Source: Pristiophorus japonicus (taxonomy: Eukaryota). Taken from it: a stretch of 64,000 nt of DNA. A program made the translations under genes and the position numbers. The notes below the pieces were generated by a model. That model was not told where the DNA came from. It was given only the letters and a program-made list of their open reading frames with translations, and did not search any database. Location of the stretch: contig NC_091981.1 in assembly GCF_044704955.1 (NCBI RefSeq), forward strand, positions 227,230,001-227,294,000, read 5' to 3'. Positions 22,252 through 26,183 of this stretch are shown piece after piece. How positions within the stretch are numbered: position 1 is the first letter of the stretch; each line of letters opens with the position of its first letter.

Positions 22252-25233
22252 TCAGCACCCACTTCCTGCTTTCACGCCATACCCCTTGATCCCCCGAGTA
22301 GTAAGGACTTCATCTAACTCCCTTTTGAATATATTTAGTGAATTGGCCTCAACTACTTCCTGTGGTAGAGAATTCCACAGGTTCACCACTCTCTGGGTGA
22401 AGAAGTTTCTCCTTATCTCGGTCCTAAATGGCTTACCCCTTATCCTCAGACTGTGACCCCTGGTTCTGGACTTCCCCAACATTGGGAACATTCTTCCTGC
22501 ATCCAACCTGTCCAAACCCGTCAGAATTTTAAACGTTTCTATGAGGTCCCCTCTCACTCTTCTGAACTCCAGTGAATACAAGCCCAGTTGATTCAGTCTT
22601 TCTTGATAGGTCAGTCCCACCATCCCGGGAATCAGTCTGGTGAATCTTCGCTGCACTCCCTCAACAGCAAGTATGTCCTTCCTCAAGTTAGGAGACCAAA
22701 ACTGTACACAATACTCCAGGTGTGGCCTCACCAAGGCCCTGTACAACTGTAGCAACACCTCCCTGCCCCTGTACTCAAATCCCCTCGCTATGAAGGCCAA
22801 CATGCCATTTGCTTTCTTAACCGCCTGCTGTACCTGCATGCCAACCTTCAATGACTGATGTACCATGACACCCAGGTCTCGTTGCACCTTCCCTTTTCCT
22901 AATCTGTCACCATTCAGATAATAGTCTGTCTCTCTGTTTTTACCACCAAAGTGGATAACCTCACATTTATCCACATTATACTTCATCTGCCACGCATTTG
23001 CCCACTCACCTAATCTATCCAAGTCACTCTGTAGCCTCATAGCATCCTCCTCGCAGCTCACACTGCCACCCAACTTAGTGTCATCCGCAAATTTGGAGAT
23101 ACTACATTTAATCCCCTCGTCTAAATCATTAATGTACAATGTAAACAGCTGGGGCACCAGCACAGAACCCTGCGGTACCCCACTAGTCACTGCCTGCCAT
23201 TCCGAAAAGTACCCATTTACTCCTACTCTTTGCTTCCTGTCTGACAACCAGTTCTCAATCCACGTCAGCACACTACCCCCAATCCCATGTGCTTTAACTT
23301 TGCACATTAATCTCCTGTGTGGGACCTTGTCGAAAGCCTTCTGAAAGTCCAAATATACCACATCAACTGGTACTCCTTTGTCCACTTTATTGGAAACATC
23401 CTCAAAAAATTCCAGAAGATTTGTCAAGCATGATCTCCCTTTTACAAATCCATGCTGACTTGGACCTATCATGTCACCATTTTCCAAATGCGCTGCTATG
23501 ACATCCTTAATAATTGATTCCATCATTTTACCCACTACTGAGGTCAGGCTGACCGGTCTATAATTCCCTGCTTTCTCTCTCCCTCCTTTTTTAAAAAGTG
23601 GGGTTACATTGGCTACCCTCCACTCGATAGGAACTGATCCAGAGTCAATGGAATGTTGGAAAATGACTGTCAATGCATCCGCTATTTCCAAGGCCACCTC
23701 CTTAAGTACTCTGGGATGCAGTCCATCAGGCCCTGGGGATTTATCGGCCTTCAATCCCATCAATTTCCCCAACACAATTTCCCGACTAATAAAGATTTCC
23801 CTCAGTTCCTCCTCCTTAATAGACCCTCTGACCACTTTTATATCCGGAAGGTTGTTTGTGTCCTCCTTAGTGAATACTGAACCAAAGTACTTGTTCAATT
23901 GGTCTGCCATTTCTTTGTTCCCCGTTATGACTTCCCCTGATTCTGACTGCAGGGGACCTACGTTTGTCTTTACTAACCTCTTTCTCTTTACATACCTATA
24001 GAAACTTTTGCAATCCGCCTTAATGTTCCCTGCAAGCTTCTTCTCGTACTCCATTTTCCCTACCCTAATCAAACCCTTTGTCCTCCTCTGCTGAGTTCTA
24101 AATTTCTCCCAGTCCCCAGGTTCGCTGCTATTTCTGGCCAATTTGTATGCCACTTCCTTGGCTTTAATACTATCCCTGATTTCCCTAGATAGCCACGGTT
24201 GAGCCACCTTCCCTTTTTTATTTTTACGCCAGACAGGAATGTACAATTGTTGTAATTCATCCATGCGTTCTCTAAATGTCTGCCATTGCCCATCCACAGT
24301 CAACCCCTTAAGTATCATTAGCCAATCTATCTTAGCCAATTCATGCCTCATACCTTCAAAGTTACCCTTCTTTAAGTTCTGGACCATGGTCTCTGAATTA
24401 ACTGTTTCATTCTCCATCCTAATGCAGAATTCCACCATATTATGGTCACTCTTCCCCAAGGGGCCTCGCACAATGAGATTGCTAATTAATCCTCTCTCAT
24501 TACACAACACCCAGTCTAAGATGGCCTCCCCCCTAGTTGGTTCCTCGACATATTGGTCTAGAAAACCATCCCTTATGCATTCCAGGAAATCCTCCTCCAC
24601 CGTATTGCTTCCAGTTTGGCTAGCCCAATCTATGTGCATATTAAAGTCACCCATTATAACTGCTGCACCTTTATTGCATGCACTCCTAATTTCCTGTTTG
24701 ATGCCCTCCCCAACATCACTACTATTGTTTGGAGGTCTGTACACAACTCCCACTAACGATTTTTGCCCTTTAGTGTTCTGTAGCTCTACCCATATAGATT
24801 CCACATCATCCAAGCTAATGTCTTTCCTAACTATTGCATTAATCTCCTCTTTAACCAGCAATGCTACCCCACCTCCTTTTCCTTTTATTCTATCCTTCCT
24901 GAATGTTGAATACCCCTGGATGTTGAGTTCCCAGCCCTGATCATCCTGGAGCCACGTCTCCGTAATCCCAATCACATCATATTTGTTAACATCTATTTGC
25001 ACAATTAATTCATCCACCTTATTGCGGATACTCCTTGCATTAAGACACAAAGCCTTCAGGCTTGCTTTTTTAACACCCTTTGTCCTTTTAGAATTTTGCT
25101 GTACAGTGGCCCTTTTTGTTCTTTGCCTTGGGTTTCTCTGCCCTCCACTTTTCCTCATCTCCTTTCTGTCTTTTGCTTTTGCCTCCTTTTTGTCTCCCTC
25201 TGTCTCCCTGTATAGGTTCCCATCCCCCTGCAA
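22252..25233 (-). CDS. CR1 ORF2: APE endonuclease plus reverse transcriptase (993 aa)
   Basis: Endonuclease motifs ITETW, YRPP, GDFN, SDH; RT motifs PGPDG, YRPVSLTS, LDFQKAFD, PQGSVL, FADD. The annotated start is TTG, not ATG. Confidence 0.95.
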   Translation of the reverse strand: MQGDGNLYRETEGDKKEAKAKDRKEMRKSGGQRNPRQRTKRATVQQNSKRTKGVKKASLKALCLNARSIRNKVDELIVQIDVNKYDVIGITETWLQDDQGWELNIQGYSTFRKDRIKGKGGGVALLVKEEINAIVRKDISLDDVESIWVELQNTKGQKSLVGVVYRPPNNSSDVGEGIKQEIRSACNKGAAVIMGDFNMHIDWASQTGSNTVEEDFLECIRDGFLDQYVEEPTRGEAILDWVLCNERGLISNLIVRGPLGKSDHNMVEFCIRMENETVNSETMVQNLKKGNFEGMRHELAKIDWLMILKGLTVDGQWQTFRERMDELQQLYIPVWRKNKKGKVAQPWLSREIRDSIKAKEVAYKLARNSSEPGDWEKFRTQQRRTKGLIRVGKMEYEKKLAGNIKADCKSFYRYVKRKRLVKTNVGPLQSESGEVITGNKEMADQLNKYFGSVFTKEDTNNLPDIKVVRGSIKEEELREIFISREIVLGKLMGLKADKSPGPDGLHPRVLKEVALEIADALTVIFQHSIDSGSVPIEWRVANVTPLFKKGGREKAGNYRPVSLTSVVGKMMESIIKDVIAAHLENGDMIGPSQHGFVKGRSCLTNLLEFFEDVSNKVDKGVPVDVVYLDFQKAFDKVPHRRLMCKVKAHGIGGSVLTWIENWLSDRKQRVGVNGYFSEWQAVTSGVPQGSVLVPQLFTLYINDLDEGIKCSISKFADDTKLGGSVSCEEDAMRLQSDLDRLGEWANAWQMKYNVDKCEVIHFGGKNRETDYYLNGDRLGKGKVQRDLGVMVHQSLKVGMQVQQAVKKANGMLAFIARGFEYRGREVLLQLYRALVRPHLEYCVQFWSPNLRKDILAVEGVQRRFTRLIPGMVGLTYQERLNQLGLYSLEFRRVRGDLIETFKILTGLDRLDAGRMFPMLGKSRTRGHSLRIRGKPFRTEIRRNFFTQRVVNLWNSLPQEVVEANSLNIFKRELDEVLTTRGIKGYGVKAGSGC

Positions 25234-25235
25234 TA

Positions 25236-26183
25236 TTAGTTTAACTCCTCCCCAACAGCACTAGCAAACACTCCCCCTAGGACATTGGTTCCGGACCTGC
25301 CCAGGTGCAGACCGTCCGGTTTGTACTGGTCCCACCTCCCCCAGAACCGGTTCCAATGCCCCAAGAATTTGAATCCCTCCCTGCTGCACCACTGCTCAAG
25401 CCATGTATTCATCTGCGCTATCCTGCGATTCCTACTCTGACTAGCACGTGGCACTGGTAGCAATCCCGAGATTACTACTTTTGAGGTCCTACTTTTTAAT
25501 TTAGCTCCTAGCTCCTTAAATTCTTTTCGTAGGACCTCATCCCTTTTTTTACCTATGTCGTTGGTACCAATGTGCACCACGACAACTGGCTGTTCTCCCT
25601 CCCATTTCAGAATGTCCTGCACCCGCTCCGAGACATCCTTGACCCTTGCACCAGGGAGGCAACATACCATCCTGGAGTCTCGGTTGCGTCCGCAGAAACG
25701 CCTATCTATTCCCCTCACCATCGAATCCCCTATCACTATCGCGCTCCCACTCTTTTTCCTGCCCTCCTTTGCAGCAGAGCCACCTACGGTGCCATGAACT
25801 TGGCTGCTGCTGCCCTCCCCTGATGAGTCATCCTCCCCAACAGTATTCAAAGCAGTGTATCTGTTTTGCAGGGGGATGACCACAGGGGACTCCTGCACTA
25901 TCTTTCTTGCACTGCTCTTCCTGTTGGTCTTCCATTCCCTATCTGGCTGTGGACCCTTCTCCTGCGGTAAGACCAACTCACTACACGTGATACTCACGTC
26001 ATTCTCAGCATCGTGGATGCTCCAGAGTGAATCCACCTTCAGCTCCAATTCCGCAACGCGGACCGTCAAGAGCTCAAGGCGGATACACTTCCCACACACG
26101 TAGTCGTCAGGGACACCGGAAGTGTCCCCGAGTTCCCACATGGTACAGGAGGAGCATATCACATGACCGAGCTCTCCTGCCAT
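25236..26183 (-). CDS. CR1 ORF1: zinc finger/leucine zipper plus SGNH esterase domain (315 aa)
   Basis: CxxC-x15-CxxC, a heptad leucine run, and SGNH blocks GDSMVR, PGA, HIGTND, DGLHL. Confidence 0.93.
   Translation of the reverse strand: MAGELGHVICSSCTMWELGDTSGVPDDYVCGKCIRLELLTVRVAELELKVDSLWSIHDAENDVSITCSELVLPQEKGPQPDREWKTNRKSSARKIVQESPVVIPLQNRYTALNTVGEDDSSGEGSSSQVHGTVGGSAAKEGRKKSGSAIVIGDSMVRGIDRRFCGRNRDSRMVCCLPGARVKDVSERVQDILKWEGEQPVVVVHIGTNDIGKKRDEVLRKEFKELGAKLKSRTSKVVISGLLPVPRASQSRNRRIAQMNTWLEQWCSREGFKFLGHWNRFWGRWDQYKPDGLHLGRSGTNVLGGVFASAVGEELN

Follow-up and report, generated by a model that had tools for sequence, protein, structure and literature searches.

How ORF2 of a CR1-type long interspersed element (LINE) comes to be translated is the question raised by a 64,000-nt stretch of the Pristiophorus japonicus genome (GCF_044704955.1, NC_091981.1, positions 227,230,001-227,294,000), here called the window, to which all positions below are relative. 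Its minus strand carries a near-intact LINE in which open reading frame 1 (ORF1) is followed by ORF2 in the -1 frame, and on the element strand ORF1 ends GAG GAG TTA AAC TAA. From the comparison of sequences, we consider it likely that ORF2 is reached by a programmed -1 ribosomal frameshift on the G_TTA_AAC heptamer within these last codons, which would yield a predicted ORF1-ORF2 fusion of 315 + 995 = 1310 amino acids (aa). An initial annotation of the window had suggested such a frameshift, stimulated by a G-quadruplex of four G-tracts. Its coordinates, spacings, lengths, and 1310-aa sum all proved correct when recomputed from the window, and the frameshift itself is supported by the evidence below; the four-tract stimulator is not, as only the first two tracts are common to the lineages compared.

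Conservation of the heptamer across vertebrates

GTTAAAC occurs seven times in the window against 6.95 expected; because this is the chance level, the evidence rests on the fixed place of the heptamer, its phase, and its conservation across lineages, and not on its count. Eleven chosen lineages, with 20-71% identity across the 60 C-terminal residues of ORF1, were compared at the nucleotide level, with one broken copy left out. TTA AAC is invariant in all 11, and base 1 of the heptamer is T in nine and G in two. The Leu columns upstream of the heptamer use mixed codons across the same lineages, and upstream wobble positions vary. In the codon usage background, TTA accounts for 17 of 197 Leu codons (9%) and AAC for 34 of 72 Asn codons; the probability of chance agreement on TTA AAC in five deep lineages is p ~1e-7, independence being assumed. 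At base 1, T to G alone recurs among the changes; the window's family shows it, as does the distant locus L092. U_UUA_AAC is the ancestral form, commoner across lineages, and G_UUA_AAC is a derived variant. Judged from these codons, constraint acts on bases beyond what the protein needs, the available synonymous freedom being unused. The expectation of the initial annotation that heptamer and -1 phase would be conserved across families was thus borne out.

The protein-level set comprised 120 of the 134 ORF1 homologs found; 99 of the listed homologs extend as far as the esterase core's end, and among them 86 terminate in Leu-Asn-stop. The named sources are sharks, rays, coelacanth, a mormyrid fish (teleost), frogs, turtles, lizards, and a snake; a chimaera ORF1 protein has the C-terminus Leu-Asn-Tyr. 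The residue preceding Leu-Asn is chemically free, with 11 kinds represented (G, A, S, T, C, D, Y, F, H, L, and I). Residues whose codons are unable to end in U (E, Q, K, M, or W) precede Leu-Asn in one of 43 clusters at 80% identity, compared with a background of 18% (p = 0.002).

Metagenome and prokaryote contigs yielded 62 loci, with an ORF1 C-terminal match in 34. Ten of the 34 end before the ORF1 stop, ten have an intact Leu-Asn-stop, three are broken with the motif out of frame, three look L2-type, and eight are weak without an endonuclease (EN) downstream. Of the ten intact metagenome ends, nine read TTTAAAC and one GTTAAAC, followed by TAG or TGA, and the first EN match was in -1 phase in all eight metagenome loci that had both an intact ORF1 end and EN sequence. 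Several of the metagenome loci we take to be bird-type, by our own reading and not by a label. No relative was found among viral contigs, and prokaryote genome contigs gave three weak, uninformative loci. One shark-type CR1 ORF1 (P0007) stands under a bacterial name in NCBI and is probably host contamination.

A published consensus library (supplement of PMC13343379) was searched over the first 400 letters of each row and judged by eye; junction spacing is unreliable there. TTAAAC plus a stop gave 31 matches, 18 of them at CR1-type ORF1 ends, a search that is circular for its six searched bases. The preceding base lay outside the query and was T in 18/18, and a run of at least four G followed within 14 nt in 13/18. 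Six synonymous control 9-mers gave 14 matches, with none at a CR1-type ORF1 end. The 18 junctions come from alligator, crocodile, bearded dragon, bullfrog, coelacanth, bowfin, chimaera, rays, sharks, and one row labelled Crack; consensus rows in the portion of the survey covered (PMC13343379) carry the same junction as the window.

Junction copies in the P. japonicus genome

The family is very large, with 136,277 preliminary candidates, a figure that is not a copy number. The junction is common to all 30 closest copies. We call the window's family A, and an older family ending Ala-Leu-Asn, family B. Searches with other ORF1 proteins led to sister subfamilies with T_TTA_AAC followed by TAA or TGA (T form in 23/30). 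In family B, TTTAAAC TAA was read in 21/30 and 23/31 junctions, in two sets sharing at least four loci, and the remainder were mostly single changes or truncations. A further sample was also drawn, consisting of 80 evenly spaced 10-kb stretches picked regardless of content and searched with an ORF1 profile that omits the last 12 residues; it gave 15 ORF1 ends, of which seven had the G form, five the T form, two a single-base variant, and one was interrupted. Among 89 distinct linkers recovered by degenerate-anchor matches, ORF2 was in -1 phase in 75, including the length classes of 150, 159, 192, and 204 nt; the remaining 14 look like scattered copy-level indels.

Near-identical copies in one family-B subset (L192-L206, on C9 and small contigs) differ only in the length of the G-run, from 8 to ~19. 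This spread is consistent with a duplicated segment plus homopolymer instability or assembly error.

Start codons and entry into ORF2

The -1 frame is closed one to five codons upstream of the heptamer in 10/13 junctions, so entry into ORF2 is at or after the heptamer, and the linker that follows is without a stop in 15/16 representatives, leaving the -1 frame open from the heptamer. The ORF1 stop of relatives is TAA, TAG, or TGA, and the -1 frame reads Leu across each. The codon 2 nt past the stop is TTG in 28/30 of the youngest subfamily and TGG in 10/12 randomly sampled junctions; TGG there makes up at least 93% of the sequence depth in four runs, depth not being copy number. Across loci this codon is TGG, AGT, TCG, GAA, or others. 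In most copies the third residue past a shift would be Trp and not Leu. In family A the first Met of the linker is codon 29 or 19, in family B it lies elsewhere, and five loci (L091, L211, L247, L299, and L300) have no Met before the EN motif, their first Met lying inside or past the conserved EN start. The AUG of KEMRK, named initially as the start that might replace a frameshift, is accordingly not conserved between subfamilies, in line with a -1 reading. An AUG overlapping or adjoining the ORF1 stop, as in SART1, is not conserved across family B, the metagenome loci, and the genome copies. Contigs across the junction in four runs showed no dominant joint, and contigs cannot settle splicing.

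Two metagenome contigs (L130 and L132) are L2-like esterase LINEs without the heptamer. In L132 the endonuclease is in the same frame as ORF1, past a single TGA and then CTG, with in-frame Met codons further down; TGA-CTG resembles a readthrough context.

The downstream G-run

Counted from the heptamer, G occupies +11 to +15 in 10-11 of the 11 lineages and +18 to +20 in 8-10 of 11; +4 to +7 and positions beyond +24 are variable. The conserved feature is one run of four to six G about 10 nt past the heptamer, and only tracts 1 and 2 are shared by the lineages. The window copy has its tracts at 25228-25224 (G5), 25221-25219, 25208-25206, and 25198-25196, but four tracts of three G with loops of 1-12 nt were present in only 2/13 junctions, both of family A. 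Local hairpin z-scores ranged from +1.9 to -1.3, the exception being one junction at -3.6 (only -8 kcal/mol), and no fold was shared. Pairing at long range to the VGPL codons in ORF2 came first in family A only and was rejected.

At junction position +10, several young copies (L006-L009 and L164) have CAA in place of CAG, which cuts G5 to G4; four G may therefore suffice.

The element and its copies in the window

The junction belongs to an esterase-type CR1 LINE. The ORF1 esterase was recognized by PF13472 (E 5e-13) and by a profile match to PDB 4c1b, an ORF1 esterase (E 1e-45); the N-terminal part of ORF1 was judged by eye from an alignment. No domain of long terminal repeat (LTR) type was found in a Pfam search of the element's proteins. 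The element ends in short tandem repeats and not in poly(A), and this 8-nt repeat end we take to be a CR1-type tail. By eye, the junction region is a near-match to the library row ScyCan_CR1-1a. Passages on canonical vertebrate CR1 with an esterase ORF1 (type IVB, CR1 subgroup 7, PMC4120745; survey PMC13343379) describe a zinc-finger/leucine-zipper and esterase ORF1, an APE-RT ORF2 (RT, reverse transcriptase), and a short-repeat tail, as here. Table 1 lists the features of the window.

Table 1. Features of the flagged element and of related copies, in window positions
Feature	Position	Strand
ORF1, 315 aa: Cys-rich/leucine-zipper-like N-terminus and SGNH/GDSL esterase; ends Leu-Asn-stop	25236..26183	-
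TAG closing the ORF2 frame upstream; 5 open codons between TAG and heptamer	25261..25263	-
Candidate slippery heptamer G_TTA_AAC in ORF1 phase (most relatives: T_TTA_AAC)	25239..25245	-
ORF1 stop TAA, abutting the heptamer	25236..25238	-
G element G5-AT-G3, beginning 10 nt past the heptamer; conserved; candidate stimulator	25219..25228	-
G-tracts 3 and 4 of the proposed G-quadruplex; family-specific, without conservation	25196..25208	-
First in-frame ATG of ORF2 (KEMRK); position differs between subfamilies	25156..25158	-
ORF2 frame, 1002 aa stop to stop: ~63-codon basic linker, APE endonuclease, reverse transcriptase (PF03372, PF14529, PF00078)	22252..25260	-
Short tandem 8-nt repeats, element 3' end	22151..22176	-
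Second occurrence of the cassette, in a broken copy whose ORF1 and ORF2 both carry a frameshift	46846..46895	-
Junction in a family-B copy that is older and 5'-truncated: TTTACAC TAA with G-runs after it	14530..14555	-

The initial annotation had pointed to the same cassette in a sister copy, and this is so: its heptamer lies at 46895-46889 and TGG at 46883-46881. It had also cited a diverged T_TTA_CAC_TAA followed by G-runs (14555-14546); the sequence is as given, but the C is specific to that copy, because the majority of its family (21/30) reads TTTAAAC TAA. Between 46680 and 46830 the second copy has a G-rich expansion and two compensating linker frameshifts that restore the ORF2 frame; its subfamily lacks these (compare L178). 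A further old family-B-like ORF1 at 35350-36150 is cut before its end and fused to internal ORF2 sequence. Unrelated to these copies, a long C/T-rich low-complexity tandem region at 4700-8270, with stretches of N at 6663-6793 and 6815-7014, yields spurious long ORFs.

Proposed frameshifting and its alternatives

A programmed frameshift would work as follows. Most ribosomes would terminate at the ORF1 stop and release ORF1p, and a minority, with Leu-tRNA and Asn-tRNA on UUA AAC, would slip back by one base and continue into a ~1310-aa fusion of ORF1p, linker, EN, and RT; rare slippage would hold RT at a low level compared with ORF1p. U_UUA_AAC ranks with the heptamers most prone to shift, and the G_UU(A) variant is named for equine arteritis virus (PMC5009743). 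The coronavirus U_UUA_AAC and equine arteritis virus G_UUA_AAC sites have the same heptamers and phase as CR1, with a polymerase-type -1 ORF that likewise has no start of its own (PMC5009743). At the viral sites a pseudoknot or stem-loop follows after 5-9 nt (PMC7618472), whereas none is conserved at the CR1 junction. The nsp2 site of PRRSV (the virus causing porcine reproductive and respiratory syndrome), which depends on nsp1beta and PCBP at a C-rich motif, resembles CR1 in having a short, unstructured, conserved motif 10 nt past the shift site (PMC7618472). The CR1 motif is G-rich and its heptamer is another one, and the likeness is an analogy only. Closer in kind, ORF2 of the Dictyostelium APE-type non-LTR elements TRE5-A and TRE3-A is said to need a -1 frameshift, according to a figure legend in a review (PMC5911963); these belong to another clade and have another ORF1.

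What might make the ribosome pause is a separate matter. RNA folds at -1 sites are usually found 5-9 nt downstream, and in PRRSV the C-rich motif to which protein binds has a spacing of 10 nt (PMC7618472); the 10-nt spacing in CR1 matches the latter and not the optimum for RNA folds or G-quadruplexes, which favors a protein-bound G-run. Granted a frameshift, a protein bound to the G-run at the ribosome entry channel, with the adjacent stop helping, could cause the pause in place of folded RNA, a guess that we put forward tentatively and by analogy. A two-tier or intermolecular G-quadruplex formed from tracts 1 and 2 may also contribute. An intramolecular G-quadruplex of all four tracts, as first suggested, would be one version of the frameshift, and it is an improbable one. 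The four tracts are present in family A, and folding of the window copy in ViennaRNA with G-quadruplexes allowed gave -6.5 rather than -4.2 kcal/mol. Synthetic G-quadruplexes after UUUAAAC promote shifting of up to ~7%, with efficiency tracking their stability and a best spacer of 6-8 nt (PMC3919603); two of the family-A loops are long, at 10 and 7 nt, the spacer is outside that optimum, and the four tracts are confined to the two junctions noted above.

Several observations weigh against a frameshift, or at least against its simplest form. A bare heptamer shifts poorly, at 0.4% in a disrupted control (PMC3919603), and searches of the junctions examined for a conserved stem-loop, a pseudoknot stem, a four-tract G-quadruplex, or a long-range partner came up empty. 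The G-run is missing from 4/18 library rows. G at base 1 weakens P-site re-pairing, yet 7/12 randomly sampled junctions carry it. The lineages compared are related, and the 11 were picked from loci with a readable ORF1 end; the test on the residue before Leu-Asn also weakens with coarser clusters (p = 0.03 at 70% and 0.06 at 60% identity). A natural family with ORF1 and ORF2 fused in frame was not found, in a weak search with two matches; these ray copies (P0121 and P0029) switch to the -1 frame shortly ahead of where ORF1 stops and continue from FKL into EN, which confirms the layout. Most family-A copies have an in-frame linker AUG, and four metagenome loci (L094, L096, L097, and L108) have an in-frame ATG 2 nt past the stop with heptamer and G-run retained, so that reinitiation may coexist with frameshifting or take over in some lineages.

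Termination followed by reinitiation is thus the obvious competitor. The ribosome would restart at an ATA overlapping the stop, at a TTG, GTG, or ATG 2 nt past it, or at a linker AUG, while heptamer and G-run would serve to hold the post-termination ribosome. SART1 uses UAAUG coupling with a downstream structure (PMC3894237; PMC10275272), and near-cognate restarts reach ~45% in systems with a termination upstream ribosomal binding site (TURBS; PMC10275272). Besides the four ATG loci and the TTG of the youngest copies, the third copy in the window reads TAATG. L1 ORF2 is reported to be made without its AUG in some cases. SART1 and L1 resemble CR1 in their bicistronic RNA and scarce ORF2p, in the parts of the sources covered, but their AUG is at or after the stop, whereas no candidate start is conserved in CR1 and its linker Met moves or is missing. 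TAATG and TAATA are absent from family B and from the TAG and TGA lineages, and neither TTA AAC, nor the U preceding it, nor the fixed -1 phase would be expected from reinitiation, which we judge unlikely. Protein constraint alone would require that ORF1p needs a C-terminal Leu-Asn and that ORF2p needs an N-terminal FKL..G.G peptide, supplied through splicing, an internal promoter, or internal entry. The terminal Leu may be part of the packing of the final esterase helix, and the -1 frame peptide is recognizable across lineages. However, FKL is unreadable without a shift or a start there, because the -1 frame is closed just upstream, and the unused synonymous freedom at Leu-Asn is not accounted for; as for splicing, L092 and family B lack the AG ahead of the G-run, and no pyrimidine tract is present. 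This we regard as very unlikely.

Implications for CR1 elements

Translation of LINE ORF2 is described as an open question in a passage of PMC3894237, and the survey (PMC13343379) ranks CR1-group elements as the dominant retrotransposon in most vertebrates. The literature searched contained no paper on ribosomal frameshifting in CR1 (nor in PsCR1); the original 1997 papers on chicken and turtle CR1 lay outside that search and may have raised the idea. CR1 has no mention in the searched part of a frameshifting review (PMC5009743), and the word "frameshift" does not occur in the main texts of PMC4120745 and PMC13343379, whose passages do not address how ORF2 is translated.

The conserved candidate slip site is a 40-nt cassette, testable by a single reporter assay. 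If frameshifting is true, the N-terminus of CR1 ORF2p would bring along the esterase and the zinc finger, ORF2 models annotated from a Met in the linker or further inside would be in error, and the element would be open to host factors that counter frameshifting. As a natural stimulator, the G-run would represent a new kind; natural use of a G-quadruplex was unknown in the portion of the 2016 review covered (PMC5009743). At its fullest, the proposal is that the LINE dominant in most vertebrates makes its RT gag-pol style, as an ORF1p-ORF2p fusion, by a -1 frameshift that has persisted since cartilaginous and bony fishes diverged, with the drive coming from a protein on the G-run 10 nt downstream, either a host G-run binder or ORF1p, and not from an RNA fold. 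All of these parts holding together is rather doubtful, but it would constitute protein-stimulated frameshifting outside the RNA viruses.

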